Origin: Thecamonas trahens ATCC 50062
Lineage: Eukaryota > Protista > Apusomonadida
Length of the DNA stretch: 64,000 nucleotides
Assembly (NCBI RefSeq): GCF_000142905.1
Contig: NW_013657620.1
Coordinates: 1-64,000 of the forward strand
Direction: 5' to 3'
Positions 17,112 through 52,872 of the stretch are shown in pieces. The notes below the pieces were generated by a model, which worked only from the letters and a program-made list of their open reading frames with translations, had not been told where the DNA came from and ran no database searches. Each line of letters begins with the position of its first letter. Positions within the stretch are counted from its first letter, which is position 1. The position numbers and the translations under genes were made by a program.

Positions 17112-17554
17112 NNNNNNNNNNNNNNNNNNNNNNNNNNNNNNNNNNNNNNNNNNNNNNNNNNNNNNNNNNNNNNNNNNNNNNNNNNNNNNNNNNNNNNNNN
17201 NNNNNNNNNNNNNNNNNNNNNNNNNNNNNNNNNNNNNNNNNNNNNNNNNNNNNNNNNNNNNNNNNNNNNNNNNNNNNNNNNNNNNNNNNNNNNNNNNNNN
17301 NNNNNNNNNNNNNNNNNNNNNNNNNNNNNNNNNNNNNNNNNNNNNNNNNNNNNNNNNNNNNNNNNNNNNNNNNNNNNNNNNNNNNNNNNNNNNNNNNNNN
17401 NNNNNNNNNNNNNNNNNNNNNNNNNNNNNNNNNNNNNNNNNNNNNNNNNNNNNNNNNNNNNNNNNNNNNNNNNNNNNNNNNNNNNNNNNNNNNNNNNNNN
17501 NNNNNNNNNNNNNNNNNNNNNNNNNNNNNNNNNNNNNNNNNNNNNNNNNNNNNN
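17112..17554. other. Assembly gap
   Basis: Run of N. Confidence 1.
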
Positions 17555-18140
17555 GGGGGTTAGGCAATCGGGTTTCTCGAAGAGCTTGTCTACTTTCCTT
17601 TTTTAGGGTACAGGAATCTGTAATGGGCGGTTCGGGCTGCGGTTCGGATTGTTGATCGGTATGGAGATGGGATGCGGGAGGGACATGGGGGGGGGGATTG
17701 GGAGGGGGAGGGGGTTGGGGCTGGATCGTGCCATGGCCCGGGTCCTCCGCTGGCACAGGGGGAAGGCCGGGGATGGGGAGGGAGAAGGGGGGGGGGGGGG
17801 GGAAGGGGGGATGATGGCCATGGCATGTGACGATGGCATGTAACGATGGTGTGTGGGCACGGCATGCGGCGATGACAGGCATGGGGTGATGGCATGCGGT
17901 GATGAGGATGACTTGATCGGAGCAGCAGGAAGCAGCTCCCCGACCGAGAAACAACCCATGGCATGACCATGACCTCCCATCCCCCTCCCCCCCCCCCCCC
18001 CCCCCCCCCCCCTCCATCACGGCCCTATCCCCCCCCCCCGTCCACTCGACTCGATGCGGCCGCCATCCCCTCCCCCTCCCCCTCCCCCTCCCCCTCCCTC
18101 CCCCCCTCTTCCCCACCACCACCACCACCCCACCCGAGTC

Positions 18141-19454
18141 ATGCTCCGCCTCCCCGCCCTTGCCAGGCACAGCATCCGCCATGCCAGCACAGATGCGGTG
18201 TGGGCAACGAGGCTCTACAGGCGGCGCAGAGGTGTTGGGCAGCAGCGAGTCCATGTGTGGGAGGTCGAGGTCGTCGACGAGCACCCGCCGAGGGTGGTGA
18301 CCCGACATGGGACGGCCGAGGGGAAGAGGACCGAGTCGGTCCGCGAGGTGGCCAGCGGGAAGAACATCGGTCGAGCAAACGCAACTACGCCGCTGGAGCA
18401 AGCCATCAAGGAGGCCATGGCTGCAGAGAGGAAGAAACGTCGCGCGGGATATGTCCCTCGCCTGGCTGATCTGGATCAGATCGAGGCCGATGCTCCCGCT
18501 CATCCTGGTCTGCATCCGGCTTGTGCGGTCGAGCCCATGCTCCTGGGGAGCTACAAGTGGCCATGGATGGCAAAGCAGGTGAAAGAACCGTGGCTGGTCC
18601 AGCCAAAGCTGGATGGCGTCCGCGCCGTCGCCATCGCCCAAGAGCCCGGCACAGAGCGCCCCGTTCGCCTCTTTACCCGTTCGGGCCTCGAGCTCCACAT
18701 CCCGCCGCTCGCCGAGAGCCTCGCTGCACTCATGCTCCAGCCTCATCATCGCCGCTGGGGCTTTGTCGACGGCGAGCTGTACGCCCATGGCCGCCCGCTC
18801 GAATCCATCTCGGGCGCTGTCCGCAAGCTACTCAAGCCCGAGACTGCGACCGCCGATGTTGACGCTCTCGCTCACGCCGGCGTCGCCTTTCACATCTTTG
18901 ACGGCGCTCGCGAGCCGACCCGCACCGCCATGGACGCTCCGTTTGCCTCTCGCGCCGCCGACCTCGACACTGTCTTTGCCTCGATCGAGTCTGCCGCCTC
19001 GCCCTGGCTTGCCCGCGTTCCCATCATCGCCTCCCTCGCTCTCGCAGACAAGTCGCAGGCCGAGGCCGAGGCCGAGCTCCGCGCCATCGCCGGCGACCTC
19101 GTCAGCTCGGGCGGCTTCGAGGGCGCTGTCCTCCGCGCTGCTGGCAGCGCCTACGAGCCCGGCAAGCGATCGCACGCCGCCCTCAAGTACAAGTTCTGGG
19201 AGGAGGACGAGTTTGAGATTGTCGGTACAAAGTCGGGCCAGGGCCGCGAGGCCGGGTGCGTCATCTGGGCCGTCCGCGACGCCCACACCGGCGCCGTCTT
19301 TGACGTCCGCCCGCGCGGCTCGCTCGACTCGCGCCGCCTTGAGAACCCGGACGCCTACATCGGCGCTCTCCTCACCGTCCGTCACTACGGCCGGACCCAG
19401 GACGACGGCCTGCCGCGCTTTGCCGTCGGCATAGGCCTCCGCCAGCTCAAGTAG
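18141..19454 (+). CDS. Minimal ATP-dependent DNA ligase (phage/NCLDV/kinetoplast type) with predicted mitochondrial presequence
   Basis: Motifs I QPKLDGVR, III VDGELY, IIIa FHIFD, IV FEGAVLR, YEPGKRS, V ALKYK, VI LPRFAVGIGLR; N-domain GKNIGRANATTPLEQAIKEA; N-terminus MLRLPALARHSIRHAS. Confidence 0.92.
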   Translation: MLRLPALARHSIRHASTDAVWATRLYRRRRGVGQQRVHVWEVEVVDEHPPRVVTRHGTAEGKRTESVREVASGKNIGRANATTPLEQAIKEAMAAERKKRRAGYVPRLADLDQIEADAPAHPGLHPACAVEPMLLGSYKWPWMAKQVKEPWLVQPKLDGVRAVAIAQEPGTERPVRLFTRSGLELHIPPLAESLAALMLQPHHRRWGFVDGELYAHGRPLESISGAVRKLLKPETATADVDALAHAGVAFHIFDGAREPTRTAMDAPFASRAADLDTVFASIESAASPWLARVPIIASLALADKSQAEAEAELRAIAGDLVSSGGFEGAVLRAAGSAYEPGKRSHAALKYKFWEEDEFEIVGTKSGQGREAGCVIWAVRDAHTGAVFDVRPRGSLDSRRLENPDAYIGALLTVRHYGRTQDDGLPRFAVGIGLRQLK

Positions 19455-19538: not shown

Positions 19539-22500
19539 TCACTTGCCCTCGTCGATCACGACCTCGTCTGACGACGAGTCGGCGTGCGACATAGACCGCG
19601 GGAGCGGCTCGCAATCCTCTGGCACCGCCGAGTTGACCATCGTCCCGCTTGTGGAGCCGGTCGACGCGCCCTCCCCTGAGCCTGGCGTCGAGACGAGGAT
19701 AACGTCAGGAATGGGTCCATAGTCTGAGACCGCTCCAGATTTTGGAGCCGCGGGCGCGGGCGCGGGCGCACCTGCGGTCGAGCCAGAGTCCGAGCCCAGA
19801 CCCGAGTCCGAGTTCGAGTCCGAGTCCGAGCCCGAGTCCGAGCCCGAGCTCGAGGCGCCCGAGTAGCCAGCAGTGCACGACTCGAGCTCGACGCCGAGCT
19901 GGTTGGCGATGGCGGTAACGTCGACCTTTTCGGGCTCGGGTGCCATGTGCGACGGCAGCGACGAGAGCGTGTTGTCCGAGTCCATCGAGTAGGCCGAGCT
20001 TCCTGGAGCGCGCGGCGGCAAGCGGGATGCCGACTGCGGTGAGACTGTGAGTAGCGTTAGGTCTGCGCGCGAGGCCTGGTTGAGCGAAGCTGACGACGGC
20101 GCAAAGGCGCGGTCGCGGCCGAGGATGCCAAGCTCAAAGAGGTCGGCGTCGTCCCTCAGCTCGATGTGGTTTTGGGTGGTGACCTGCCGGGCCTGTTGGA
20201 AGAGCTCGCGCTCCCAGCGAGTGTTCGACTTCCACACCCGCCACCGGCCGTCGACGGTCTCCATGACATTGAGGAACGCGCCCGACGCAGAGCCCTCGAG
20301 GAGGTCCATTTGCTGGACGAAGACGTCGACGACGATGGCGACGAGGACGTTGAGGAAGACGACGACGACAAGGACGATAAAGGCGACAAAATACCACGCC
20401 GTGTACGACGACGTCGCCTTGATCTCCTCGTACATGACCTCGTGCCAGTTGGAGCCGGTGAGGAGCTGGAACAGGGTGAGCTGCGACTCGACAAAGTTGG
20501 GAAACTGGCCCGTGCCTGAGCCGGCAAACAACTCGAGTCCGATGATAGAGAAGACGTAAAAGACGGTGAGGATGAGGAAGAAAACTGCGCCCATGGTAGG
20601 CAGCACCTCCATCATCGCCGACACAACCTTCCGCAGCCGCTCAAAGAGCGAGACAAGCCGCAGGGCGCGGAGCGCAAACAGGCCCTGTAGCACACGCACG
20701 TTGCGCTCGCTGTTGGGGAAGCCAAAGGCCTTGCGCGGGGCAATGGTAAAAAGAGCGATGGTGGTGCTCACCTGCGAGAGGAAGATGATCAGGTCGACTC
20801 GGTTCCACCGCGACTCCCAGAACTTGGCAAAGCCGAGAACAAGCATCTGGACGCCGTGCTCGAGGCCGTAGAAGACAAGGAAAGCGAGGTTGAAGGCATA
20901 CATGGCCGAGATCGACGACGGATCGTCGAGCGAGCCGACAAGGCCGAGCACGGTAATGTTGGCCGCTACCACCATAAACACCACAGCCTTGACGTACCGC
21001 GACTTGGTCTGGTCGCGCCACTTCCGCAGCTTGGTGGACGCGCCCGAGAACGCATGCGTCACGCACGCTGGCACGAGCGACTCGGCCTCGCGCCGCCGCG
21101 AGAACCGCAGCAGCAGCGCATCAACGAGGCCGTCCCAGTCGCTCCGCGAAATACCCTGGCCCGAGTGGTGCTGGTCGAGGTGGTGGAAGAGAATGAGCGC
21201 CTGCTCCTGGTCGTACTTTCCCGGAGCCACAGCGTCGAGAAAGTCGCGCCACTCGTCAAAGGTGACGAGCCCGTTGTTGTTGACGTCGAGGAGCGCAAAG
21301 GCGACGTCGAGGGCCTTGGTCTCCTCGATAAAGTCGCGCGAGACCTTTTTCTCGCGGATAGCCTTGTAGCCCTCGAGCACAATCGCTACCACCACATTCA
21401 TCAGCAGAAACATGGAGAAAATGATGTACGAAACAAAGAAGATGACGTTGACGTTGTTGCGGTCGTACGCCGGCCGCATGATGTCCGGGTAGTTCTCCGA
21501 GGTCGAGAGCACAAACATGGCGAGGCACGACGCCGAGAACGAGTTAAAGTCGCCGAGCCCGTCCGAGGTGTAGTACGAGTGGTACAGGTTCATGCCCATA
21601 ATGCCGTACGTGAGCACCAATGCAAGGTATGCCACCGAGATCTCGGCGAGCTTGGGAATGGCCTTGAGCATCGTGCCCACAATGTCACGCAGCTGGGCAG
21701 ACGAGGCCACCAGCAACGCGGCCCGGAATGGCCGCGAGAAGCGGACGTTGGTGCCGGCTCCGTACGTGATGAACGCATCGATGAGAATGGTGATCGCCGT
21801 GAAAAGATACGAGCCAGTGTGCAGCGACTTGAAGTACTGGAGGCCGCCCATGGACGGGAACTTGAGCCCGATGTCAATGAGGTAAAAGGTACAGGCGAGG
21901 ATCTCCAATGCCGCGTACGTCTTGCCGTGCTCACCGAGTGGCGCCCGGTGCGAAGTTGGCTCCCACCGAGCCAGTGACATGTGCGCCACAATGATGGCAA
22001 AGATAAAGTACCGCCATGCCCGTGACGAATGCCACTTGTAGAACGCCGACTGCACCGCCGTCCGATCGATAAAGATGTGGCCCTTGACTGATTCACGGAC
22101 AAAAACGCCGCCTTGTCCACGCGTTCTTTGCGCTGTCCGTCATCGCACCATCACCAGCACGACCAACGTCATCACCGCCACCAACGCCACCGCCGCCAGA
22201 AAACGATCATCACCACCAGCATGATCCCCACCACCGCCACGAGACCCCAGCCCGACCACCATCGCCATCACCACCGCCACGAGACCCCAGCCCGACCACC
22301 ATCACCATCGCCACCGCCACGAGACCCCAGCCCGACCACCACCACCATCGCCACCGCCACGAGACCCCAGCCCGACCACCATCGCCATCAACCGATCATC
22401 GTAACATCGCCATGAGTCCCCTTCCCTCCTCCCCCCTCCCGCCCCCGCCCCCGCACACACACGCTCTCTCCTCTCCGTCTTCTCCAACATACCGTCAGAT

Positions 22501-25468: not shown

Positions 25469-28400
25469 ATGCTAGCGCTTGCCGCCACTGCGCATGCTGT
25501 CGGCTACTGCTACGTTGCTCATCCTGACTCTGTGACTCTGAAGTCTTCGGCCACCAAAGTGGACGATATTTTTGACGCTCCCGGCGGTGGCGTCAACAAC
25601 CCCTGTACCGCGGCTGGACACACCAGCCTTACCACACCTCGTACCATGCCAACGGATACAGCTCCGAGCACCAACCGACCTGTGAAGGCGCTATGACAAA
25701 CGCCTGTAGTATGGTTCCCAACGAGGTACGTGAGTATCGGGTTGTGCTCGGCCTTTGCTGCACTGACGCCGACATCGAGTCGGACAACTTTGTGCTCAAG
25801 GGACCGCGAGCAAGCGGACCTGACCTCAACGGGTGCATTGAAAAGGTGGATCACTCCAAGTCGTGCCCATTCGGCATGACCGAAGGTGCCATCAACTATC
25901 CGGCTCATCCCGACGGCAAAACGGGAGAGTACGGCTCGCCGCCGCACTCGTACGGCAACCGTGTCGAGTACTGCTGCGGTACGATCAAGTCTGCGGCCTC
26001 GGTCGACCAGGAGATGTGCGTCATCGCCGAGAGCATGCTTGGCACAAACGTTAATTGTCCTCCGGCCTTTCCCAACGGCAACCTCTACACCATCATTCCC
26101 CACTCACGCGGGACGAGCCTCCACGATTACTCGGGCGCGGGCTACACCCCCAACGCCTGGTACACCGCCTACCTCAGCAACGAGGACGACGGTAACCGTC
26201 CATGGTATCGTCCTGAAGCCCGCGGAGTGACTTCGCTCTCTCGATGCTGCACTGGCAGCGGGCCGTGGTCTGGCTGTGTTGCTTCTCCGTCGCACCCAAC
26301 CATCTGTGGCACCGACAACCCCAACGGGAACCACGAGGGGTGCCTGTCTCCGACCGCCAGCTCGCCGCTCTGGGACATGACCTGCCACTCGTGCCCACAC
26401 GGCGGATTTCCTTCGGCCTCGGTCGAGGATCGCCTCCGTACCCCGATCTCCGAGCCCAAGGTGTGCCAGTATGATCTCTGTGGAAACGGCGTCATCGACG
26501 GCGATGAGCAGTGCGACGTCTCGCGCTTCTACAGTAACGCCGACTACAATCTGGACTTGGCGGCCGTGGCCTCTGGCAGCCTGCCGGACCCGCGACCGAT
26601 GTGCAGTGACCAATGCAAGTGGATCGTGCCACAGATGCAGGTCGACTACGACCAGACGACGTTGTCCAACAGCGTCGTCAGGATCACGCCCCGGCTCAAC
26701 GCGCAATACGCGAGTACCATGGGCTTCAACACGGTCATGAACGTCAACTCGGATGCCGGCAACCAGGCAACCCTTGCTTCGCTCATGTTCAACTACGATC
26801 GCGTCGACTACATCATCGCCTTCTTCCCCTCGGGCACCGTCAAGGAGCTCAATGATCAGGTCCACGGCATGGAGACGTACGTCGAGTCGCCTGCAAACGA
26901 CAACCAGGTCCAGATCCAGGCCCGCGGTCGTCTGGCCTCGTCAGATCCAAACACCCCCGGGAGAGACCTCGGCTACTCCGAGTGGTCCCTCCCCACCTCG
27001 CGGAGCGTCCGTCCGTGCGGCTGCAACGACGTCGGCGATGGTCGGCCGTCTAACATGATCGCCACCCAGTCGGTCGACTCGGGCACCATGTCGCTCTCCT
27101 GGATCCACAACTCCACGTGCGGCTCTGTCATTGCTGTCGGAAAGGAGGAGCTCCGCGATCCTGTTTCCGGCGATTGGGGCCCCAACGTCGTCATCGAGAC
27201 CCGCACGCTTGGCGCCCTTTGTGGCCAAACCGTCGATGTCGTCAAGTACCGCCCGACCGAGTCGGACGTCGGCAAGACCATCCGCTTCTCGGCACACGTC
27301 GCCAACAACTTTAACGGCAACATCTTCCAGTCGTCTGCCGACTCGTATACCGCCCCGATCGTCGTCGCCTGGCAGCGGAGCTTCGAGGGCCGCGTCATCG
27401 CCCCCAACGGCGGCGGTGTCGGTGGCGCCGCCGTCACCGTCCAGCTCATCGACCCGGACACCATGGCAGTTCTCGCCGTCGCAAACAGCACTTCGACATC
27501 GTCGACAGCCGCTGGTGGCACATCGTCCACCGGCAGCTTTGTGGCTAACATCTACGCAGAGAACACGCCCAACAAGGGCCACATTATCCGCTACTTTGGC
27601 ACGTCGGCCTCAGGCGCGCCGCTCGAGTGCGGCACAGCCGGCCAGACCGTGTGCGATGTGGCCAATGTCAAGGTTACCGGAGGCATCGTTTCCCTGAGCC
27701 TCACCGATATGGTCGTCCCTACTATCCGCGTCTTTATCAACCACGTCAACTCAACTTGCGAGTTCCAGCGCTCACGGGCCGATGGTGCTCCCGACCTCAC
27801 CATCGCTGCTTTCACGTCGACAGACGCCAGCATGGCGCCCATCGAGACAACCGCCACGGTTGACCTGTTCCGCAACGCCGGCGAGCCGCATGGCGTTGTG
27901 GCCGATGGCCTCCAGATGGCTGCAAGCGTTGCCCTCGACATCACCTATGGTGATCACGTCTTCCGCATCGCGGCCATCAACAACTACAACTCTCTCGACG
28001 AGACGTCGGGCCCCCGATTTCCACCGACCTCCCGTCCTCGCCGCTGGGCTTTGTCATCACCGCCCCTGTTGTTGACATTATTGTCGAGGATGTGACCGTC
28101 CGCGACGTCGAGCTTGCGCTCTACTCTTCTCGCTGTGGCTACGATCTCGGTGGCGGTGTCGTGATTGCCAGTGGCCCAGGCCTCTGCTACCAGGCACGGT
28201 TCGATGTCGGCGTCTCGGCGTCACTTGTCACCATCCCCGCCCTCGCCGAGGTCACCTTTGACTACGAGCTTGCCATCTCGACCGCCGTCGATGCCGGTGA
28301 GCCGGTAACGCCTGATGTCCAGCTCCTGGCCACCCAGGCTGGGACCTTTTTCGACACCATCTACACGACTGGGCGGCGAGTCGACCTTGCGCTCCCCACC

Positions 28401-31400
28401 GATGTGCCGGCTGTTGTCCACTACCAGTTCCGGACCGACATCGACGTCGGAATCGACCAGATCCGCGACTACACATCGATGGAGAATTCGGTGGAGATTT
28501 GCAACACCGCATACGGCACGCCCTGCCTTGACTCGTACGATCCAAGCGTATGCTCGATGGCAACGATGTGCTCGCGCGAAGAAATTCGCACCCTTGCTGA
28601 TGGCTCGGTCGTCGACACGGGCGGCCAGCCGATGACCGACAGCAGTCTCATCGCTCGCTACGGCAGCGTCTTCTGCGTCTTCCTCGAGCTCTCCGAGACG
28701 TACACTGTCTTTGACTCTATCGGCAGCAGCCATGTTGAGACCTGCTACGACGTCGAGGGCGAGGTCTCGGTCCGCGATCACGTCTCGGGATCGGCCGAGC
28801 GAGTCCTGGAGTACTCGGGCTATGTGGGTGGCAAGACAAACGATACGGACACGTCGGGCGTCCGCATTCCGCTGTTTGTCGACGAGCCGGCCATGGCCGC
28901 GCCGTTTGTTCGCGAGCTCGGCGTGCAGATCGCGCCCACGTACTATGCCGGCTCGGCGGCTGTCGACGACGAGGCTTGGCGCGGACCCGCCTCGCAGGCC
29001 GATCTCGCCATCACGGCACCGGTCACCCATGTGCTGGACGTTGTCGTCACGGGTCCCATTCTTCAAGAGAACGGCAACATTGTCGAGTTCTCCGTCAGTG
29101 AGCCGCTGCTCATCCTGCACGATCCTCCCGGAGACAGCTCGTACGTCGAGCTCGAGTCCGGAGCAGCGATTGTGGCGACGAGCGAGAGGGAGCGGATGTG
29201 GACCGAGGGTGACGAGATCGACTCGCTCTTTACACCCATTTTGTATTCCAATGAGGTCTCGGTGGGCAGCTCGCTTGGACCTCTTGACTTTTCGGTGGTT
29301 GCGGTCAGCTTTGAAACCTACAAGGCCGAGATCAATCACCTAGCGCATGAGCTCCAAAGCGGCGACCGCCTGGGCTCTCATGAGAGCGAGGCAGTCACGC
29401 GCACCACAATCGCAACGTCATCGCTACCGGAAGCCGCCTTTGAGGAGGGTCTCTCGGACGTCATCGTGCTCAAGACAAAGGTCTTCCGCGTGGTCGACAC
29501 AAACATGGTCACCTTTGATCCCACAACCTGTCGTGCCAGCCGCAACACTTCCAGCTCGGTGTACAAGAAGGTCTCGGACGATGCCATCGCCGTTCACACC
29601 TGCGCCGACATCCGCAAGAACATCGCTCAGCTCCGCCACGATGCCGCTGCTGCCGTCCTCCAGTCAGACAGCGCGGTGACGACGGCAGTGCTGGACATGG
29701 AGATTGCGCGCTGGGAGAACATCCTCAGCATCCACAACCGGTCCCTGCATGAGGAGCCGATGGAGGGCACTACGGCGCAGGACCGGATCAAGTCGATTGT
29801 CTCGCGCGACTCGCAGCTCTCGCACTTTGGCCTCGACACGCTCGGCTTCAACGCCGATGACTCGACCATCTCGCTGTCGGGCGGACAGGAGCTGGTCCTC
29901 GAGTGGGAAATCGCAAAGTCTGAGGTGACGTTCTCGCAAGAAGTGTCCCACGCCACCACCCTTCCCATGACCTCTCGGCCCCGGCTCAGGTCCGCGGACT
30001 ACGACATGGATGTGGACGACCTCACGCGGCGTGACATCATCGCCCAGTTCCTGGGTGATATGAGTATTCAGGCCAACAAGGCCTCTCAGACACGCCTTAC
30101 CATCGCTAGCTTCGGCTACGAGAGCTCTTACGAGCGCAGTATCTACGATGTGTCCGAGAAGCGCTCCAACGACGAGGTGAGCGAAGGCAGTACGGCGCGC
30201 GTCCGCATTGTCCTCTCCGACAGCAACCTCGGCGATCACTTTGTCATGCGTATGGGCACCGATCCGCTCTTTGGCACTCCGGTCTTCAAGCTCCTCGACG
30301 GCAAGTCCCGCTGTCCGCACGTCCGGGGCACCATCCGGCGTGAAAGCGTGTCGCTGGTGCCGGCGACCGCGAACCAGGTGGCGGACGTGACCGGCGTGGC
30401 ACCCGATGGATCGGCGTTCTGGCGGTACTCGCTGATCAACACCAACCCGGATGAGGGAGCCGACGTCTCGGTCTATGTCTCGCTCCTCGACAATGCTGGT
30501 GGCATGCGGGTCTTCCTCAACGGGCAGGCCATCGGGACCGGGACCGGGCCGTTTGGCTCGTTTGATGTCTCCATCCCGCCGCTCGCCTCCGGCGAGCCTG
30601 CGCCGCAGCTCCTCCTCGAGGCTCGCCGCGATGGAACCGACGCCTTTGTCTCGGGCCCCATCACCATCACCGCAGTGCCAACGTGTGAGTTTGGCATCGA
30701 TTCAACGTCGCCGGACATTGACGAGGGTGTGTCCGAGCAGGTTGTCTCGGTCGAGTTTGTCTCGCCATGCGCGCAGGTTGTGTGGGCTGATGCGCTCGGC
30801 ACGGGCGCGCCGTTTGCTGTCCTCCACGACGAGCATGAGCCGCACGACGAGACCAAGTACCTCATCACAGGCTTTGTCCGCAACCCGCTGTACTCATCGG
30901 TCAGCCGGTGGCGTGACCATCCACGGCTGACTCTTGTCCGCGTCCAGTACGCAGCGCTCGGGACCGAGGACTTTACCGATGCCTCGGGCACTGTCCTCCT
31001 CGACACCGGTGCAAACACGGCCGGCTTCGTCCATCTGTACAAGCGCAGCGAGGATGATGTCGATGGATCCGAGGCCATCTCGGCCGAGGGCATGTTTGGC
31101 CTTGGTGCCTTCACCTGGGATGTCTCGGCCCTGCCAGATGGCGAGTATGAGCTCGTTGCCGAGGCCATGTGCTCCACGCCCGGCTCGCAGGATCCGATCG
31201 TGATCTCGACGATGACGCCGCGAGTTCGCGGCATTATTGATCGCTCCATCCCCGACGCTGCCGCGCCGCCGCGTCCGTTCTCGGGCGAGTACATGCCTGG
31301 CGAGTCCGACGTCGAGTTTGCCTTTACCGAACCGGTCGACTGCAAGCGAGCAAAGGCGACGGTGACCGTCGCCGGCCAGCTGGCGTCGCCGGTCTCGATC

Positions 31401-32318
31401 GAATGCATTGGCACGCGAGTCCGGGTCTACGTCGACGCTGCGCTGGTGGACAACGCCGGGGCGCTGGCTCCAACCCAGTCCTTTGTCGTCGCCCTTACCT
31501 CGATCTATGACATTGCCGGCAACCCGGCGCCGGCGTCGTACTCGCACACGCTGCGGACGGCACCGCTGGATCCGTCGCGCGCGCGCATCACCGTCGCCGG
31601 CCTGGTGGGCAAGGGCCCTGTCACCGACTACGGCTCGCTTGCTAACTACACCGCCGTCATGGGCGATGTGCTGGCCAACGCCACCCGTGCCCAGTCGGGC
31701 CTGGTCTTTGGCGACGACCGCATCACCGTTGTCCGCCCGACCGTCCTCTCGTCGGGCGACGTCATGTTTGACGCCTTTGTCTCGGACGCCTCGCCTGCGG
31801 ACCCCACCCTGCCGGGAGCTATCGCGCGCGATCTCATGGCTGCGATTGCCACCGTCGACGACGTCAGCGCTGGGCTCGCCTTTGACGAGCCGAGCGCCTC
31901 GCCGCGGTCGGCCCTGGTCCGATCGATCTCCACCGGCGCTCGTGCCGCTGGCTCGCTCCGCCTCAACATTGAGCCCGCCCTCGCCGACGTGCTCGAGCAC
32001 ACCCAAAGCGAGTGGCACGCCGTCCATGGGCAGCAGTCGTGGGAAGGTGAGCGCAAGCAGGTGATGGTGACCCAGACCATCGCCGCCACGCCGTCGCCGG
32101 CCGCCGCCGCGCCCATCACCCCCAGCAGCAGCTTTGCCCTCACTGCCGCCATCGCCGTCGCCGCCATCGCCACCGTTCTCCTCGTCGGTGTCGTCGGTAT
32201 GCAGTTCAAGATCCTGTCCGCCGTCAAGGTTGCCGCCAACAAGCCGGCGTGGTCCGAGACCAGTGGCTTCACCGGCGACTCGATGACGACCATCGAGTCT
32301 GGATCCTCGTCCGAGTAG
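25469..32318 (+). CDS. Giant (~2280 aa) type I membrane protein with Cys-rich N-terminus, beta-sandwich domains and C-terminal TM; frame breaks at ~25600 and ~28011; possible short first exon at 25363
   Basis: Signal peptide MLALAATAHA; CGNGVIDGDEQCD repeat; three consecutive ORFs join with one added C each (NNPLYRGW; SGPPISTDL); TM AAIAVAAIATVLLVGVVGM near the C-terminus. Confidence 0.8.
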
Positions 32319-32817: not shown

Positions 32818-35800
32818 ATGCGCGTGGGTGACAGGTCCGGGCCCTTGGGCGGACGGTGGGGGCTGGGAGTGGCGGGTGCGGTAGTAATGATAGTGGCAAT
32901 AATGGTGGCGATCGGTCTGGCCGATGTGGCTGCGGCAACAACAACAACGACATCAGTGGGCGGGGGTGGATCTACGTGGATAGCGCCAAGTGTGTCCCAG
33001 TGTTTGCCGGATGCGACGGCGGTGCGGCAGCTGGTGGGGGTGGCCAACGGGGTGAGCGCCGTAGTGGCGGCCGATTTGGACGACGATGGCGACCACGATC
33101 TGGTGGTTGCCGTCAGGGTTGCCGACTCTGTGTGGTGGTATGAGAACGTCGACGGCAATGGAACGTATGGACCGGCTCGGGTGGTGTGCGCCGTGTGTGA
33201 CGGTGCCGAGGGCGTGGCGGTCGGTGACTTTGACGACGACGGCGACATCGACGTGGCCTCGGCCTCATCTAGTGACAACTGCATCCGCTGGCATCGCAAC
33301 AACGACGGTCTCGGCGGCTCGTGGACCACCTTTTTGCTCATGTCTGGTGCGAGCGGTGTGCGGTCGGTGGTGGCTGGCGACGTCAACAGCGACGGCTTGA
33401 CCGACTTGGTCTCGGCCACCCGCAACAGCGGGTCACTTGTGTGGCTGCGGAACAACGGCGGGCTCGGGTCGCCGCTAATCATTGCCAGCGGCCTCGGGAG
33501 GCCAGGTGCGCTGAACCTGGGTGACATTGACGGCGACAACGACGTCGACGTTGCCGCCGTCTGCGAGAACGACAACGAGGTGGTGTGGGCAGAGAATACT
33601 GGCGGTGCCGGACTGGTGTGGACCGTCCACCGGCTGATCGGCTCGCTCAAGAACCCGTCTTCGGTGGCAATAGCCGATTTGGACGGAGACGGTGACCTGG
33701 ACCTCACGGCCTCGGCATACTTTGGCAACGCGCTAGTCATGTTTAAGAACATCGATGGTCGTGGCAGCTTTGGGCCGCTCCTCGTGGTCTCGGCCAATGT
33801 AGACCGGCCATACCAGGTTGTGACGGAGGATTTGGACGGCGACGGCGACATCGATCTGGTAGTGGCCACCAATAGTTGGTCGACCAGTGATGTGGTATGG
33901 TTTGAGAACCGCGACGGACACGGCTCCTTTGGTGGGACCCGAGTGGTCTCATTCGGCCATCAAGGGTCGTCGTCGGTGGCAGTGGCAGACCTGGACGGCG
34001 ACGGAGATCGTGACATTGCCGCCGCGTACTTTAACGACGACGTTGTAGGCTGGTTTGCAAACAGCCTCGAGGCAAACCGCGAGTACTATGCCGCAACCGA
34101 CAACGTGGTGACCACGATTGTTGACGAGCTCAGCGAGATGGTTGTTGTGGACATTGATGGCGACGGCGACCGCGACGTCGTCTTTTCGGTCCAGGAGTTT
34201 TTCGGCTGGGTGGAGAACGTAGACGGCACCGGCACCTTCGCACCTTTCGTCGCCATCGACTCTACCGGATTTGGCGGCGCGAGCCAGCTAGCTTACGGCG
34301 ACATTGACTTGGACGGCGACATCGATGTGGTCTCGGTCACGTCGACAGGCGTGCTTGCGTGGTACAGCAACGACGGTGGCAAGGGTGTAGCTTGGACGCA
34401 GCAGGTGATCAACTCCGCCGAAACGAACAACAACTATGCACTCGCCACAGGCGATGTCGACGGCGACGGGTGGTGCGACCTTGTGGCCGCCAGTATGGTC
34501 GACGACGAACCACTGGTTTTGTACAAGGGCTCGGCGAGCGGGTGGACGACGGTGGTGGTGGCGGAGACAACCAAGCACTTTCGCAAGTTGGCCCTTGTTG
34601 ACCTCGACAGCGACGGCATTCTTGACTTGGTGGCGTGCAACAAGTCGGAAGTGTACTGGTTCCCCAACATCGGCGGCGAGTTCGGGGCTGGCATCCAGAT
34701 CGAGGCTGACACTGGAGCGTTTGTGATGTCGGTGGCGACGAGCGACATCGACAGCGACGGCGATGTCGATCTGGCGTTGACTAGCGGCACCTCGGTCCAT
34801 TGGTACGAGAACATTGACGGTGCTGGGACGTTTGCCGCAGCGCGTGTGCTGGCGGTCGGGACGAATGCAAACGACGTGACGCTGGCCGACATGGACGACG
34901 ACGGCGCTGTGGACATGATTGTCTCTCGCAGCGACAAGGTGTATCTGTACCCTAACCTCCACAACGCGAGCTTTGGTGGTGGGCAACTACTCAAGACGGT
35001 CGCCTCAGAGGCATGGATCAGCGTGGCCATCGACATCGACGACGACGGTGATCTCGACTTGGTGGTCGGCGCCGACAACGGCATTGCGCACCTGGTCTTA
35101 CAAACCTCGCGCAGCCCGTTCAAGGTCACATATGAGCCGACCGAGCGGGGGCTGGATGATCCGATGTGCGTTCGTGGAAACGCGACGGCTGTTGCGTGCT
35201 GGGGGGCATCGCTGGCTCGCCTCTCCAAGTGCACGACCGACACGCTTGCTCTTCCGCCCGGAGAGTACGACTGCCCTCGGCTGAGCCACGTTCGCGAGCA
35301 CCGGCGCTCAATCCGAATAGCAGCAGCTGAAGCGAGCACCGTGAACTTTGCTTGCGATGGCAGGGTGTTGTTTCAAGTCGGCGCAGATGAGGACTCGGTC
35401 GGCCAAGTCGAGGTTGTGGGCATCCGGATCAAGGCAACCGGGAGTGTGGCCACGGTCGACGGGGTGCCGGGCCTTCGTGTGGACGCTGCCGGCGGTCGAC
35501 TTGTTCTGCGCAACGTGACGATAGAAGGCGGGACGTCGACGGCGCGCCCGACGCTTCTCTCGGGCGGCACCGGCGGGTGCGCGCTGGCGGTGAACGGCGG
35601 GACGATCGAGGTGATTGACTCTGTTGTGAGTGGTTGCACAGCGTCGGGGAGTGGCGGGGCGCTAGCCTCGGTCGGCATTGGAAGCACAATCCATGTTGTC
35701 CGGTCCGAGATCTCAGACTCGGTGGCTGGCGGGCTCGGCGGAGGGCTGGCGGTCATTGATGGTGGGCTGGCGACGCTCCACTCGGTCGTCGTGGCACGCA

Positions 35801-38619
35801 ACTCTGCCGAGGAGGGTGGTGGGCTGGTGGTGGCTGACGGAACGGTAGTGGCATGTGAAGCGACGATGACGGCCAACCGCGCAAGCAGGTCTGGCGGCGG
35901 CGCGCGAGTCCTAGCCGGCGGCATGCTCAATACGAGCAGCAGCACGTGGGAGGCGAACACGGCCGGCGTGGCTGGTGGCGGGCTGATGGTGGCGGTAGGC
36001 GGGCTAGTGAGCCTGGAGTCGGACACGCTGACGGCGAACGCCGGTGTGATCGGCGGTGGGCTTGCCGTCGGGTCGCAGCCAGACGCGGCCGCGGCCGCGG
36101 CGACTGTGGCTGATATTCCGACAGCGGCGTCAACGTACGGCATCGACCGTAGCTCAGTCGCCAGTATTTCCTTGGTCGATGTGGTGCTGAGCGCAAACAC
36201 AGCGAGCAAGGTCGGTGGCGGGCTGTTTGTGTGTGAGGCGCGGATCAATGTGGCTGGCGATGCGACCAAGTGGGAGGGCAACACGGTCGGGTTCTCACCT
36301 TTGGTGCGATCGTCGGGCGACGCGTTTGTGTGCGCGGCAATCGAGAGCGGCGGCAGCGGGTGGAAACGCGACGTAGCCGACATGTTGCCGTGGCTCCGGA
36401 TTGAGCGGGAAGTCTTTGACAGAGACGGAAGAGGGTGGGAGATCCATGGCCCGATGGCGTCGCTGGCGTGGGTTGTAGCCCCGCCCGAGCGCGTGGAGGC
36501 CGGAGGGCGGGTCGCTGCAAGCATTGTGACGCGCGACTGGCTAGGTCAAGACGTGGTGTATGAGACAAGTGTGGTGGCGACGACGTTTGCGGCGTCGGCG
36601 GTGCTGGAGCCTTTCGATCTCCCAGACACGCTACTGGAGACGATTGTAGTGGCGCTTCCCGAGGCTGTGCTCGGAGTGGCGGACGTGGAGGAGGCGCCCG
36701 GGCGTGTTGTGATCTTGGTGGAGGCGGTGACGGACGGAAGCGGTCGCGGACTTCGAGTGGCGGGCCTGGATGCTGGTATTGAGATCACGGGCTGTGGTAT
36801 TGGCCGCGGTGCTGTTGTTGCGGATGGAGTGACGACGTGCGTAGCGTGCGGACCGGGGACTGACTCGCCGGACGAGTCGTTTGGCGCATGCGAAGGCCTC
36901 GGCGAGTGTCCGATCAATGCACTGCGGTTGCAGACGAACGCGACAAACGAGCCGTGCATGTGTGCGCCCGGTTTCTGGAGCCGGGACGGACAGGTGAACG
37001 TGGCGTGCGAGGCGTGCCCTGTGGGAGGCCGGTGCGATGGAGGACTGAGCCGGCCCGTGGCGCAACCGGGCTTCTACCCGGATGCTGGAAACCCGACGCT
37101 GTTCTTGGCGTGCCCGAATGCGGGCGCATGTGTGGGATCGGGGGCGTGTGCCGAAGGGTATGTTGGGCGACTCTGTGCCGAGTGTCGAAGCGGATACTAT
37201 CGGCTCCGCGGGCAGTGCTTCAAGTGTCAGACCGGGCTGAACGGGGCCGTGACGGGGCTGCTTGTGATCGGCGCTGCAGTGGTCGGCGCGGTGCTTGTGG
37301 GCTTCAACCTCGCGGAGAGCGTGCGGTACAAGTTTGCGGCAGTGATGATCGGGCTCAACGCGCTGCAGATCTCTGCGCTGTACGGCAAACTCGATCTGGA
37401 CTGGGGCGAGTTTGCGGCGGTGTACTTTGACATCATCTCATCGCTCAACCTCAATCTCGAGCTGACAAGTCCTGAGTGCAGCCTGGCGGCCGGGACGGAT
37501 GTGTGGGTGGCCAAGCTTGTGCTGACGCTGCTGCTCCCGGTGTTGGCCGTGTGCGTGCTGGTTGCGGTGGGGCTGGGGTTTTGGTGCGCGATCAAGGCAC
37601 GCGTGCGATGGTTTGCCGGCAAGAACCGGGCGCAGCTGGTGGCTGCCGTCCAGCGGGCGTGGTTCCAGTTTCTTGTCCTCCTTTACCTCCCGCTGACGAG
37701 CGCGGCGCTCTCGGTCTTTGGCTGCCGGCGCGACGAGGCTCGGCGGTGGGTGCTTGACGCCGATCCGGTGCGGAGCTGCTACAATAGCGCATGGTGGGCG
37801 GGCCTGTTCCCGATCGGGCTCGCCGGCGTCGGTGCGTATGCGCTGGCGATGCCGGGGATGGTGGTATGGCTACTCTCACGGCGACGCGCGACTATGGACG
37901 TGGTCACCTTTACGTTGCGGTACGGGTTTCTTGTTGGGCGGTTTGCGGTCGATTCGTGGTGGTTTGAGGCGGCGATTATGGCGCGGAAGCTATCTGTGGT
38001 CGGGTGCATGACGTTCTTCTTTACCGACGACGGCAAGGCCAACGCGGCGGTGTTTGCGCTGGCGGGCAGTCTGCTGCAGCTGGTCATGACCCGGCCGTAT
38101 CTGGCGCGGATCCACAACCAAGTGGCGGTTGTAGTCCTCTGTGCCACCATGTCTGTCCTCTACGCTGGCACCTTTGCGGATCGGACGTTCCGGCGGGTCG
38201 GCGTCGCCGCCGGCATCGCCGTCAACCTGGCCGCCATCGTCGGCGGAACAGCGCTCGACGTGTGGCGGATGGCGCAAAGCGAGAAGGCGGCCGAGACCCT
38301 CATGTTCCAGCCGGGCTCTTTCCACATGGACACAGAGGTCGAGGTCGAGGATCCAGTGGCTGCCACGGGGACGTTCACCACCACCGTCGAGCTCGACATC
38401 CTCGGTCAGCCCGAGATGGGCTCGAGTCCGGCCTCCTCGCTCGGTCCTTTCGCGACCGAGGGCTCGTCGATTTCGACCGCAGTGGCTTGCTCGACGCCTG
38501 GTCCCGGCCCGCCGACCGGCCCGCCGACCGTCGTCTCGTCAGCGGCGATGCTGTCACTGCCGTCGGCAGGTGCCGAGGACTCAGGCACCTTGACCACAGT
38601 GGGTGTGGATTCAGAGTGA
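32818..38619 (+). CDS. FG-GAP/VCBS repeat + Pmp-like parallel beta-helix + Cys-rich + multi-TM (about 7) receptor-like protein, paralogue 1
   Basis: Signal peptide; ~14 DxDGDGDxD motifs; GGGL/GGAL repeats with N-x-A spacing; CxxCPxG repeats; C-terminal hydrophobic helices. Confidence 0.9.
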   Translation: MRVGDRSGPLGGRWGLGVAGAVVMIVAIMVAIGLADVAAATTTTTSVGGGGSTWIAPSVSQCLPDATAVRQLVGVANGVSAVVAADLDDDGDHDLVVAVRVADSVWWYENVDGNGTYGPARVVCAVCDGAEGVAVGDFDDDGDIDVASASSSDNCIRWHRNNDGLGGSWTTFLLMSGASGVRSVVAGDVNSDGLTDLVSATRNSGSLVWLRNNGGLGSPLIIASGLGRPGALNLGDIDGDNDVDVAAVCENDNEVVWAENTGGAGLVWTVHRLIGSLKNPSSVAIADLDGDGDLDLTASAYFGNALVMFKNIDGRGSFGPLLVVSANVDRPYQVVTEDLDGDGDIDLVVATNSWSTSDVVWFENRDGHGSFGGTRVVSFGHQGSSSVAVADLDGDGDRDIAAAYFNDDVVGWFANSLEANREYYAATDNVVTTIVDELSEMVVVDIDGDGDRDVVFSVQEFFGWVENVDGTGTFAPFVAIDSTGFGGASQLAYGDIDLDGDIDVVSVTSTGVLAWYSNDGGKGVAWTQQVINSAETNNNYALATGDVDGDGWCDLVAASMVDDEPLVLYKGSASGWTTVVVAETTKHFRKLALVDLDSDGILDLVACNKSEVYWFPNIGGEFGAGIQIEADTGAFVMSVATSDIDSDGDVDLALTSGTSVHWYENIDGAGTFAAARVLAVGTNANDVTLADMDDDGAVDMIVSRSDKVYLYPNLHNASFGGGQLLKTVASEAWISVAIDIDDDGDLDLVVGADNGIAHLVLQTSRSPFKVTYEPTERGLDDPMCVRGNATAVACWGASLARLSKCTTDTLALPPGEYDCPRLSHVREHRRSIRIAAAEASTVNFACDGRVLFQVGADEDSVGQVEVVGIRIKATGSVATVDGVPGLRVDAAGGRLVLRNVTIEGGTSTARPTLLSGGTGGCALAVNGGTIEVIDSVVSGCTASGSGGALASVGIGSTIHVVRSEISDSVAGGLGGGLAVIDGGLATLHSVVVARNSAEEGGGLVVADGTVVACEATMTANRASRSGGGARVLAGGMLNTSSSTWEANTAGVAGGGLMVAVGGLVSLESDTLTANAGVIGGGLAVGSQPDAAAAAATVADIPTAASTYGIDRSSVASISLVDVVLSANTASKVGGGLFVCEARINVAGDATKWEGNTVGFSPLVRSSGDAFVCAAIESGGSGWKRDVADMLPWLRIEREVFDRDGRGWEIHGPMASLAWVVAPPERVEAGGRVAASIVTRDWLGQDVVYETSVVATTFAASAVLEPFDLPDTLLETIVVALPEAVLGVADVEEAPGRVVILVEAVTDGSGRGLRVAGLDAGIEITGCGIGRGAVVADGVTTCVACGPGTDSPDESFGACEGLGECPINALRLQTNATNEPCMCAPGFWSRDGQVNVACEACPVGGRCDGGLSRPVAQPGFYPDAGNPTLFLACPNAGACVGSGACAEGYVGRLCAECRSGYYRLRGQCFKCQTGLNGAVTGLLVIGAAVVGAVLVGFNLAESVRYKFAAVMIGLNALQISALYGKLDLDWGEFAAVYFDIISSLNLNLELTSPECSLAAGTDVWVAKLVLTLLLPVLAVCVLVAVGLGFWCAIKARVRWFAGKNRAQLVAAVQRAWFQFLVLLYLPLTSAALSVFGCRRDEARRWVLDADPVRSCYNSAWWAGLFPIGLAGVGAYALAMPGMVVWLLSRRRATMDVVTFTLRYGFLVGRFAVDSWWFEAAIMARKLSVVGCMTFFFTDDGKANAAVFALAGSLLQLVMTRPYLARIHNQVAVVVLCATMSVLYAGTFADRTFRRVGVAAGIAVNLAAIVGGTALDVWRMAQSEKAAETLMFQPGSFHMDTEVEVEDPVAATGTFTTTVELDILGQPEMGSSPASSLGPFATEGSSISTAVACSTPGPGPPTGPPTVVSSAAMLSLPSAGAEDSGTLTTVGVDSE

Positions 38620-40090: not shown

Positions 40091-43000
40091 TCAAGCCTCC
40101 TCATCCAGCTCGGACAAGTCGCTCAAGCTCCCGCTCAGACTGACTTCACCGCTAAGACTCAGCAGACCGACAACGACGCCATCATCGACCGTGGACGACC
40201 GCTGACGGATGTCGCGCAGATCGCGGAGGATGACCCGGACCAGGAGGATGACCCCACTGCTGAGCGCGAACATGGCCATGACCACAAACAGCAAATGCGA
40301 GAGACTGTTTGGAAAGTCATCAGCCCAGAAAAATGCGCCCACCGTGAGCACAAACATGGCGATGCCGTTGAGCGCCAGCTCGACCGAGTTGTGCGAAGCC
40401 TTGGCAAACGGCTGCAGCCGAAGCTGGACAGCTCCAAACAGCGCAAAGAGGCAGAGGAGGAAGAAAAGGAGCCACACAATGAGACGCGACGCAAACATCG
40501 CCACTGCAACCAGCGCAAGCCGCTTGCCGAGCAGCGCAATCTCAAACAGGTAAAACTGCGGCTTGTACGCCTCGTACAGCACGCCGAGCTCGGCCTTCAC
40601 GTGCGGCTCGCCCAGCGAGTTGCGCGCCCGTGCAAGGATCACAAACAAAAACAGCGGGAGCCCGATGACGTACGCCACCACCGCAAACAGCCCAAACGGA
40701 AGCATGTCAAACCACTGGTCGTCAAAGCACTTTTGCCCCACGTCCGCGTCCAGCACGTACTCGCCCGATGGCAGCCGTGTGCAGTCAAATAGCAGCAGCG
40801 ACGCGTACGCCGACGTGATGTACAGCATCGGCCCCACCACACACACCAACCGCCGCACAACCTGGCCCACCTTCACATCGCCAAGTCGGAACACGTACCG
40901 CGCCGTCGCCGCCGCCGCAATCACCACAGCCAACAGCAATCCTGGCAATATGACCGAGAACTTGTACGTCAGCGCAAAGTCGTCCAGCACGCACTCGGCA
41001 CCCACCAGTGAGAACGAGAGATTGAAGAGCGAGAACAGGTCGAGTGTAAAGTTGAGTGGCGACGGCCAGTTGAGCAGCGACGCTCCGCCAATCACCGCCA
41101 TCGTCTGTACGTACAGCACCGCTGCCTTGACCCCGTACGGCGTCGACATCGGCACAAGCTCGCGTCGCGCCTTGTTCTGCCGCTGCGCAAGCACAATGAC
41201 GCCCGTCACGAACCCAATCGTCACCACAACCACGCCTGCCACAAAGACGACAAAGACTAGCTTGGCCGACGCCGGGCACTTGACGCACCGCAGCGCACGG
41301 TTCGTGTAGTACCCGTCCTCACACTTGCGGCACATAAAGTCGGTCGTCCCACGCTCACACTCCGAGTTGACCTTGCACGAGTCCGGCCGCGGGCACGGCG
41401 CCAACTGCGCCGCCACTCCTGTAACGTTGGAGACGTCAAAGTAGCCTTGAGCCGCAACAGGCGCCTCCACTGACGAGCCGCGACAGATCCCTCCGACCGG
41501 GCACATCACACACACCTCGTTCCGCCTCCGGTTCGGGGACCAAAACCCGGGCTTACACTCGCACGGCCCGACATCGAACGCCGTCGACTTGCCCGGCCGG
41601 TGCGTGTTGCGCGGGCAAAGCGGATACGGGATGCACGACTCAGTCGTCGTCTCCGGTGAGTACGATCCGTCCTGGCACTCGCCACACAGAAATGGCGATG
41701 GCGAGATGACGCCGTATCCGCGCGGGCACGCACCGAGTCGCACTGACGCAGTTGCCATCAGCGACGCGGACTCAACCATTGTTCCCGTCAGCACAAGGTT
41801 GATACCGGCAAGAACCTCCGTCGTCTCCCCAAGCATGTCGGCATCTGCGGCTGCCAAAACCGCACCCGCCATCGTCGCCTGTCCCATCGGCGTCGCACTC
41901 ACTGCCACAAGCACCTTGTCGCCAAGCAGCTTGAGCTGCGCCTCGGAGCCCGGTGCCACTTGGAGCGACACCGTAGCATCTGCACTCGGATTGCCGTACG
42001 CATCAAAGACTTCAAACACGAGCTCACTGGCCGGCGTCCCCGAGACCAGTTCCACAGGTGTCGTCACATTGGCCAACCGCAGATAGACCGGCCCGCTCCG
42101 CACGTTGCGCAGTGCCGACGAAGCCGCAACATCTAGCCACCCGGTCTCGCTCAGCGCCACCGCGTTCTCTAGCGCTCGCCCGTCTACCATCGCGGGCACG
42201 CATGTAAACGTTATCGAGCCCGAGTCGACGTCAGCGTCATGACTCGCCTGCCCGCCCTCGGTCGCATCCATCACCTGAAGCGTTGCCCCGCATAGGTACG
42301 CCACATCACCTCGATGTGCTGCGTTGCCTGAAAACGTCACCCGCTCCATGGCAACCCGCCCGCCGCTCGTCGTGGCGCTTCCTACCGGCCGCCACGGCAG
42401 CTGCGACGGATCACTGTCCATAGGCGAAGCAAGCGCGTCGTCAAACGCCGCAATCGCTCCGCCGTACATCGCCGTGTTCGCTTCAAACTGAACGTCAGCA
42501 AGGAACACCTCCGATGCCGCTGCAGGCATCACAAACTCCACCGCAACTGCTCCGCCTACTCCACTTGAAGCTGCGCACTCGACAAAGCTCGATCGAGTCA
42601 CAGACACACTCGCGCCGCTCGAGACAGCAATCGCGCCGCCAGAGCCGGAGGACGTGCACTTGCGGAAAGACGTGTCAGCCACTGCAAGACTCCCATTGCT
42701 GGTCACAGCCAGGAACCCGCCGTCCACACGCACCTCCCGCAAGTCGCCAAACGGCGAGATCCCCGAGTTGGCATGAGCCACGCTGCAGTTGCGCATCGTG
42801 AGCGCCCCTTCGTCTCGCACCTGAATCCCCGGTCGCGGCGGGTATGTCAGCGCAGACGTCGTACCCAAGATCACCAGCGAGTCCAGCGTAAGGCTCCCGC
42901 CATCCTTAATGTCAAACAACACTCCACCGGATCCGCAGTTGATAGTCCCGGAGCCAGGCACGTCAAACGACGGATGAATCGTCAGCGGCCCGAGCCCAGG

Positions 43001-52164: not shown

Positions 52165-52872
52165 ATGTCAGCCAGCAGTTGCGAGAGAGTGCAGAAGCGG
52201 ACGGCACGACTGCTTGTCCAGCTGGCGCCACAGGGAGCGTCCAGCGGCGGCGCAGGCCACGCCCGTGGACGGTCACTCCCGCTGCTCCGCGAAGCGCTGG
52301 CACGGGTCGACTTGGAGAGCCTTCTTGCCGACGGCGAGCATGTGGCTGCTGGCGGAGCTGGGAGCTTCGGCAGTGCTGACGAGGCCGGGAGCAGCAGTGG
52401 TGGAACGGTGGGAGCCGTCAATGTCGCCGAGTGGGTGGCCGGCGCCGGGTCGTGGACGGCGGTGTCTGGCGCGGTGGCGGTGAGCCAGGCGCGGATCGAC
52501 GCCTTCTCGGCGGTCACACTTGACCCGCAGTGGATCCACGGGGCAGAGGCTGGGCTCGCTGGCTCGCCGTATGGCACACCCATTGCTCATGGCTTTCTCG
52601 TCCTCTCGCTGCTCTCGCCGCTAGCGGCGTCGACCCTGCCGCCCATCAAGGGCATGGGCATGGGCATCAACTACGGTCTCAACCGAGTTCGGTTTGTGGC
52701 GCCCACGCGCGTCGGCGCTGCTGTCCATGCCTCAGTTGCTCTGGCTGCCGTCAAGCGCATCAACGGCGGCGGCATCGAGTCGGTTCTGGACGTCTCGCTC
52801 GTCTCGTCCGATCCGGCTGTAGGCGACAAGCCCGTCGTTGTCGCTCAGTGGCTTGTCCGCCACTATCCGTAG
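52165..52872 (+). CDS. MaoC/NodN-like hot-dog-fold dehydratase ((R)-enoyl-CoA hydratase-like)
   Basis: VSQARIDAFSAVTLDPQWIH, PIAHGFLVLSL, GINYGLNRVRFVAP. Confidence 0.92.
   Translation: MSASSCERVQKRTARLLVQLAPQGASSGGAGHARGRSLPLLREALARVDLESLLADGEHVAAGGAGSFGSADEAGSSSGGTVGAVNVAEWVAGAGSWTAVSGAVAVSQARIDAFSAVTLDPQWIHGAEAGLAGSPYGTPIAHGFLVLSLLSPLAASTLPPIKGMGMGINYGLNRVRFVAPTRVGAAVHASVALAAVKRINGGGIESVLDVSLVSSDPAVGDKPVVVAQWLVRHYP

Follow-up and report, generated by a model that had tools for sequence, protein, structure and literature searches.

The window (the whole 64,000-nucleotide stretch analyzed here) carries on its forward strand an ATP-dependent DNA ligase open reading frame (ORF) of 437 amino acids, which extends from ATG 18141 to TAG 19454 with zero internal stops and is of the three-domain ASFV/phage type (18141..19454), as assigned from Pfam, PHROG, and structure alignments. 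This gene is real, intact, and host-adapted, and belongs to a viral ligase family. The 90% identity cluster of a near-identical protein includes XP_013753465.1 (UniRef A0A0L0DTR3) of the apusomonad Thecamonas trahens, and a copy with 99% identity (P0002) is present in a separate assembly. Compared with positions 18613-18715 of the window, the P0002 protein (ENA) starts in another frame and only then enters that of the ligase, a pattern expected if 26 bases flanked by short direct matches had been lost; this switch is likely an assembly or cDNA artefact. The initial annotation had described a 437-residue ligase with all nucleotidyltransferase motifs and an OB domain, and this description is borne out by the frame, the Pfam matches, and the invariant catalytic residues. 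The N-module that it quoted (GKNIGRANATTPLEQAIKEA ... KKRRAGY) and the start (MLRLPALARHSIRHAS) likewise read as claimed from the translation, while its term "intronless" holds for the frame from 18141, with transcript cover being partial only.

A C-rich tract (17975..18135, forward strand), delimited by base composition, ends just before ATG 18141: the C fraction of the 60 bases preceding this start is 0.72, vs. 0.53-0.62 at three and 0.18-0.38 at 16 of the 19 other ORF starts in the window. The tract includes a second ATG, at 18054, which is in frame with that at 18141 and not separated from it by a stop, and the resulting 466-aa ORF gains 29 residues of poly-Pro/His encoded by the C-rich sequence. 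Neither the tract nor the start codon at 18141 is covered by a contig, a result that is neutral as to which start is used.

The public protein XP_013753465.1 is 378 amino acids long and consists of the residues MAR followed by residues 63-437 of the 437-aa frame, such that residues 1-62 are dropped. The MAR codons are at 17733-17741 and are followed by GT, and residue 63 comes after an AG at 18325-18326; the public model thus appears to remove 17742-18326 as an intron, these coordinates being deduced from the P0037 protein sequence and not from annotation. This first exon with its intron (17733..18326, forward strand) is probably wrong. Residues 36-62, which lie inside the supposed intron, match a profile of 304 relatives (excluding the 437-aa ligase itself and its closest relative, P0003) at 15.5 bits, a score reached by 0 of 1000 shuffles (best 5.6), and they form confident beta strands of the N-terminal domain in the AlphaFold2 model. 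Additionally, an RNA-library contig of 169 bases is 100% identical to 18266-18434 and crosses the supposed acceptor unspliced; this one contig is the whole RNA cover of the ligase, and the library may contain DNA, although the X1 pieces longer than 150 bases that lie wholly on a 14-kb stretch are all three in coding frames (among the rows listed). The residue 36-62 homology, the N-domain strands, and the unspliced contig led us to reject the 378-aa model as the true gene. The analysis therefore corrects a public gene model that is probably truncated and that, by lacking residues 1-62, has hidden the N-terminal extension from proteome-level targeting screens.

The composition of the gene is host-like, as the initial annotation had claimed: with a GC3 of 0.79, it lies at a codon distance of 0.091 from the host pool, inside the range of host genes (0.048-0.117, n = 14). 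The corresponding distances for viral ligases are 0.105-0.326 (n = 11), with 10 of the 11 above the host range and one GC-rich ligase (L089, 0.105) within it. The further claim that there are no viral neighbors also holds, in that the 26 other ORFs scanned include none with a viral family match and 12 without any match. The neighboring ORFs encode two-pore-channel-like, EF-hand, zinc-finger, ankyrin, kinase, FG-GAP, MaoC, FANCD2, and PRKCSH-domain proteins, and many of these host genes are likewise long single ORFs. The nearest is a eukaryotic two-pore-channel-like gene on the reverse strand (19539..21980), with two Ion_trans stretches and an EF-hand, which lies tail to tail with the ligase at a distance of 84 bases.

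Several features of the surrounding genes can be recorded here. The channel gene (19539-21980, reverse strand) is a long single ORF whose product has EF-hands and ends in a Ser/Asp-rich repeat tail; large FG-GAP repeat and DUF7630 proteins form a cluster at 32818-38619 (forward), 40091-44460 (reverse), and 45439-49500 (forward); and the long ORFs at 25693-28095 and 28479-32318 have no Pfam match. A FANCD2 orthologue (56704-61140, forward) is one ORF of 1478 aa with a basic N-terminus, and a MaoC-like dehydratase (52165-52872, forward) has an N-extension with a hydrophobic moment of 0.78 and may be organelle-targeted.

An artificial origin of the locus, in which contamination or misassembly attached a viral contig to the scaffold close to the 17112-17554 gap, is hardly credible: the N-gap is 590 bases upstream of the ligase, but the sequence is continuous into the channel gene, an independent contig (19165-19697) runs without differences from the 3' end of the ligase gene into that of the channel gene, and the 99%-identical P0002 comes from a separate assembly. 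Alternatively, the gene could be the sole leftover of a recent or decaying insertion from a giant virus or phage, with no role in the host, in which case P0003 would be viral as well. The intron-free frame, the P0003 contigs that show no host context, and our finding no close eukaryotic orthologue with a name or context all accord with such a remnant, yet the first of these is matched by the many long single ORFs among neighboring host genes. With intact catalytic residues, host-like codons, no viral gene among the 26 other ORFs, a host-type C-rich tract before the start, an RNA-library contig, and a long branch to every viral relative, we consider a remnant quite improbable. An old transfer, as the initial annotation had proposed, may be read from the codon use and from a single sister sequence, P0003.

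Domain architecture and the N-terminal domain

The adenylation (nucleotidyltransferase) domain, delimited from Pfam and alignments, comprises residues 130-353 (18528..19199, forward strand) and contains the PF01068 match at residues 143-351 (E 6.5e-11, 42.7 bits, cut-off 26.2). Its motifs are QPKLDGVR (with the active-site K156, codon 18606-18608), R180, DGELY, FHIFD, EGAVLR, and LKYK, to which we assign roles on the assumption that established ligase biochemistry applies. No variation occurs at K156, R161, E212, E327, K349, or K351 across the 311 aligned family rows. The OB-fold domain follows at residues 354-437 (19200..19451, forward strand; Pfam, model, and alignments), with R426-F427 at the nick-contact position; PF14743 matches residues 366-434 with E 1.8e-5 and 25.1 bits, which is under the curated cut-off of 28, and the region is a confident beta fold in the model and is aligned to ligase OB domains.

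The initial annotation had stated that the DBD, BRCT, and zinc-finger parts of LIG1/3/4 are absent, and none of these has a Pfam match at E ≤ 0.1. Its assignment of the protein as a virus-type ligase distinct from LIG1/3/4 is supported by the Foldseek, profile, and VIA comparisons. PHROG 114 covers residues 51-437 (E 1.5e-44), whereas no NCBIfam model is matched at its cut-off and the LIG1-type dnl1 reaches only E 2.8e-5. The family profile matches LIG4 at 1e-18, LIG1 at 1e-13, and LIG3 at 3e-12, in the catalytic core only, vs. 1.7e-57 for the ASFV ligase (AsfvLIG). An AlphaFold2 model built from a 24-row alignment has a mean pLDDT of 83.9 (residues 1-16 below 50), and its top Foldseek match is AsfvLIG 6imk, which aligns at full length with E 6.6e-26; the VIA alignment to AsfvLIG spans model residues 14-435 (Z 26.9, rmsd 4.3, 364 residues). 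Among the 50 structure rows listed, the N-terminal domain is covered by AsfvLIG entries only, and the rows for LIG1/3/4, T4, chlorovirus, and Lig E structures begin at residue 98 or later. As modeled, this is a ligase without a LIG1-type DBD but with an ASFV-type DNA-binding domain.

This N-terminal DNA-binding domain (residues 19-105; 18195..18455, forward strand), placed by the 6imk alignment that starts at model residue 14, is modeled as a beta sheet with one long basic helix and a GKNIGRAN loop; when folded from the single sequence it is poorly predicted (pLDDT 54). In a wide structural search, residues 21-109 match the N-terminal domain of 2ra8_A (Z 9.0, rmsd 2.0, 70 residues), and residues 12-113 match three WGR entries from PARP1/PARP3 (Z 7.3-7.4, rmsd 2.7-2.8, 84 residues), where a Z below 8 can reflect a common arrangement. 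The Pfam WGR family (PF05406) has a weak match in one of 24 relatives (E 5e-4) and none in the T. trahens ligase. CDD also lists a WGR model for bacterial ligases. Together, the structural matches of the model suggest that the N-domain of ASFV-type ligases is WGR-like. The AsfvLIG paper, in the parts cited here, describes the fold of this domain as novel, with WGR unmentioned, and reports that DNA binding and ligation are abolished in AsfvLIG without it (PMC6344480). The "novel" N-domain of the ASFV ligase is thus suggested to be WGR-like and common to many phage and giant-virus ligases.

Viral relatives and the candidate donor

Representatives clustered at 50% identity include 6517 proteins matching the ligase at E ≤ 0.001, of which 143 reach E ≤ 1e-30. 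Besides the gene's own copy, the closest relative is P0003 (297 bits, 46% identity), and the next scores 176 bits. P0003 is found on three short ENA contigs, where it is called from an internal Met, and it is sister to the T. trahens ligase in all trees (support 0.998, 100, and 100). Its sequence contains a Ser/Ala/Pro-rich linker, for which reason it is probably eukaryotic.

Where a label or context exists, relatives in the 25-36% identity range prove to be ligases of giant viruses or phages. Atlas clusters of the family are 70-100% viral, there are 455 phage records, and the top BFVD matches are pithovirus, crAss-like, and asfa-like models. PolB together with Rpb2, a capping enzyme, or a major capsid protein adjoins three of the 12 related ligase loci scanned, and other giant-virus-like genes are found near several more. 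Scans of metagenomes, viruses, and prokaryotes gave nothing above 36% identity among the matches listed, with 11 loci recovered from 185,579 prokaryote genomes using two short patterns. A search of shorter proteins returned 14 fragments, the best at 41%, none belonging by identity to the clade of P0003 and the T. trahens ligase (P0001), and an Atlas search with residues 1-45 gave no usable match. Of 20 protist and fungal genomes aligned, three had matches (L161-L163, at 28-31% identity), which lie in giant-virus-like or phage-like surroundings; given these viral-looking surroundings, we rejected the three loci as orthologues and take them to be contamination. These fungus- or protist-labeled assemblies contain giant-virus-like (with a TFIIS-like neighbor) or phage-like contigs that bear the ligase family. 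Among family members, P0077, P0237, P0267, and P0210 have 160-185 extra N-terminal residues, and the extra region of P0210 resembles an RNase H domain by eye.

For the trees, 423 rows were thinned to 311 at 75% identity and then hand-picked; the trees were built without ASFV, ligase k, ligase E, or LIG1/3/4 sequences. Beyond P0003, the sister is P0146 in the FastTree of 311 rows (0.89) and in a C20 mixture tree of 51 rows (86), while the IQ-TREE of 73 rows places P0208 there at 13, in a wider group with P0194 and P0231 at 65. In AU tests, constraining the ligase to the phage group or to P0194/P0231 gave p 0.84 in each case, and since each constraint found a better tree than the free search, the tests are uninformative. 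The donor is likely a large DNA virus, and no tree decides between a phage and a giant virus.

A second eukaryote-like pair belongs to the same viral ligase family. P0194 is a protein from MMETSP (marine protist transcriptomes) with a 79-residue N-extension that has an internal Arg-rich stretch from its second Met, and P0231, which lacks the first strand, is found on four contigs of 1.2-1.4 kb and is sister to P0194 (98). The two are not close to the T. trahens ligase by BLAST (ranks 116 and 222 of 423), and they are possibly another organelle-targeted recruit.

N-terminal extension and proposed role

Family relatives begin at about residue 19-20 of the T. trahens ligase, so that residues 1-18 are an addition ahead of the first conserved strand. 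From pLDDT, the relatives' starts, and composition, residues 1-17 (18141..18191, forward strand) are an unstructured, Arg-rich, acid-free extension and a predicted mitochondrial presequence. They contain three Arg and no Asp or Glu, and their best hydrophobic moment is 0.63 (residues 3-13), a value reached by 19% of shuffles (p 0.19), such that the helical amphipathicity is not above that of shuffles. The R-H-A-S end of the extension fits the R-2/R-3 cleavage rule, with cleavage predicted after H14 or A15. A true start downstream of the presequence, which the initial annotation had named as evidence that would count against targeting, is excluded because the next Met, M93, is inside the DNA-binding domain.

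Among 271 Met-initiated family proteins longer than 300 aa, the T. trahens ligase is the only one with no acid and at least three Arg in its first 17 residues. Length alone means little, since extensions of at least 15 residues occur in 29 of 278 aligned proteins, the T. trahens ligase included. A three-part filter, chosen after seeing the sequence, requires no acid with at least three Arg, a moment of at least 0.6, and at least four large hydrophobic residues; all three parts are passed by 0 of 19 other ORF starts in the window, by 59 of 13,479 internal windows, and by 24 of 1454 ATG-started 17-mers (∼2%). The first part by itself is passed by 171 of these 1454 17-mers in the GC-rich window, and also by the FANCD2 start, which makes Arg-rich starts cheap in this genome. 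A peroxisomal PTS2 signal was also considered and rejected: residues 3-11 fit eight of the nine positions of the pattern, the last fails, and peroxisomes hold no DNA. A DNA ligase is useful in only two compartments of the T. trahens cell. From the extension we judge mitochondrial import, alone or together with a second form of the protein, to be fairly likely; a mitochondrial function is the best reading, one that rests on a short, weakly diagnostic extension.

The other compartment is the nucleus, and here the protein would be a domesticated viral ligase serving as an extra repair enzyme, similar to the ligase E of bdelloid rotifers and Mortierella, with the extension being incidental. Chance occurrence of Arg-rich starts at the frequency given above would allow for this, and non-canonical nuclear repair ligases have precedents in eukaryotes, according to the sections cited of PMC10665377. 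The basic clusters R27-R30 and R97-R101 could serve as nuclear signals, and the WGR-like domain is of the type that reads DNA breaks in PARPs. Both basic patches, however, fall where viral relatives are basic as well, and P0003 does not retain KKRR. A distinct ligase E, equipped with a PBZ finger, already exists in T. trahens, and the acid-free extension is unique among the 271 family proteins. We consider a nuclear role of this kind unlikely.

LIG1/CDC9 and LIG3 serve both compartments via two starts. By analogy, ATG 18141 could give a mitochondrial form, and the upstream in-frame ATG 18054, from which no stop intervenes, a form with 29 more residues in which the poly-Pro/His leader masks the presequence, leaving the protein nuclear or cytosolic. 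ATG 18054 is, however, part of a low-complexity C-rich tract, and similar tracts terminate just ahead of other starts in the window; dual targeting by this route is improbable.

We lean toward the view that the gene encodes a viral ligase, domesticated by the host, whose task is to seal nicks in mitochondrial DNA. As a nuclear gene likely acquired from a large DNA virus, it would be translated from ATG 18141, with the first 15-17 residues acting as a matrix presequence; import would be followed by cleavage near residue 14-15, leaving the N-domain intact. By family analogy, K156 would be adenylated from ATP, the AMP would be transferred to the 5' phosphate of the nick, and the 3' OH would attack, while the WGR-like N-domain and the OB domain would close around the duplex in a three-domain clamp, also as in the family. 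The enzyme might join lagging-strand fragments or complete base-excision repair, beside the POP polymerase, which is putatively mitochondrial in Apusomonadida (PMC10877234, in part). Such recruitment has precedents, with phage-derived mitochondrial polymerases described from Euglenozoa in the cited passages of PMC7883662, and MidX, which is common to giant viruses and apusomonads, predicted to be mitochondrial in those of PMC10280142.

Tentatively, apusomonads, which are sister to animals and fungi, may have replaced or supplemented the usual dual-targeted LIG1 or LIG3 with a dedicated virus-derived mitochondrial ligase, which was missed through the truncated gene model, and P0194/P0231 may represent the same viral family recruited by another lineage. 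A full-text literature search, covering titles and the openings of abstracts, returned nothing on this gene or on a virus-type mitochondrial ligase in apusomonads (supplements were covered for two papers, and a table entry is possible), and found no report of a ligase from this viral family as a mitochondrial replication enzyme. The word "ligase" is absent from the main text of PMC10877234 and PMC6523293. For Andalucia, an 829-residue predicted mitochondrial ligase is given in the portion cited of PMC7050145.

Comparison with known ligases and virus-derived mitochondrial enzymes

AsfvLIG (NP419L; PDB 6IMJ, 6IMK; PMC6344480, in part) is the closest structural counterpart of the T. trahens ligase, with which it shares three domains, an N-domain with a GKNxGxxNATT loop, and a Leu at the position of F635 in LIG1 (T. 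trahens L220, AsfvLIG L211). The T. trahens ligase differs in being a cellular gene, in its 17-residue extension, and in sequence (26% identity). The two proteins also differ at the nick site, where T. trahens has D158, R426, and F427, human LIG1 has D570, R871, and F872, and AsfvLIG has N153, L402, and Q403. Most family members also have D, R, and F at these positions (286, 241, and 280 of 311 rows, respectively), and because these residues are as in human LIG1, the T. trahens ligase is predicted to be of ordinary fidelity, unlike the error-prone ASFV enzyme.

The PHROG 114 ligases of large phages (Nankokuvirus, Vequintavirus, and others) and giant viruses are homologous over their full length, including the N-module, at 25-36% identity, but they sit among viral genes, the members tested all lack an acid-free Arg-rich start, and they offer no supported sister group. 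The ASFV, phycodnavirus, and Marseillevirus ligases have been placed among phage and bacterial ligases, with a protist nuclear gene of this kind unmentioned in the sections cited (PMC2806865).

The kinetoplastid ligases k-alpha and k-beta (PMC2743194 and PMC10665377, in part) are compact proteins with PF01068 and PF14743 that are used on mitochondrial DNA, and are a functional parallel if the targeting holds. The initial annotation had drawn this parallel, and it stands for function but not for kinship, as ligase k is grouped with ligase E in the analysis cited (PMC10665377, in part). Eukaryotic ligase E, as described for Adineta vaga, Mortierella, and T. trahens in the parts consulted of PMC10665377 and its supplement, is also compact and horizontally acquired and has the same two Pfam domains; the T. 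trahens representative, which has a PBZ finger, is UniRef50_A0A0L0DPB3. The virus-type ligase (A0A0L0DTR3) is distinct from that ligase E gene (A0A0L0DPB3) and has no PBZ finger, and it scores 71.5 bits vs. a cut-off of 200 with PRK09125. Lig E structures align with it from residue 126-130 on, and the T. trahens ligase has an extra N-domain of 90 residues.

The mitochondrial Pol gamma, the T7-like RNA polymerase, and PolIBCD+ are viral DNA enzymes, phage-derived in these instances, that gained a presequence and act on mitochondrial DNA, but they are polymerases (PMC10877234 and PMC7883662, in part). Surveys of organellar DNA replication have centered on polymerases. A presequence-bearing ligase of viral type in the lineage sister to opisthokonts would add a new step to those of mitochondrial replication with viral components, and would provide a small, intronless, and easily tested enzyme. 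If the proposed role is true, ligases would stand next to the polymerase, helicase, and RNA polymerase among the virus-derived parts of mitochondrial replication.
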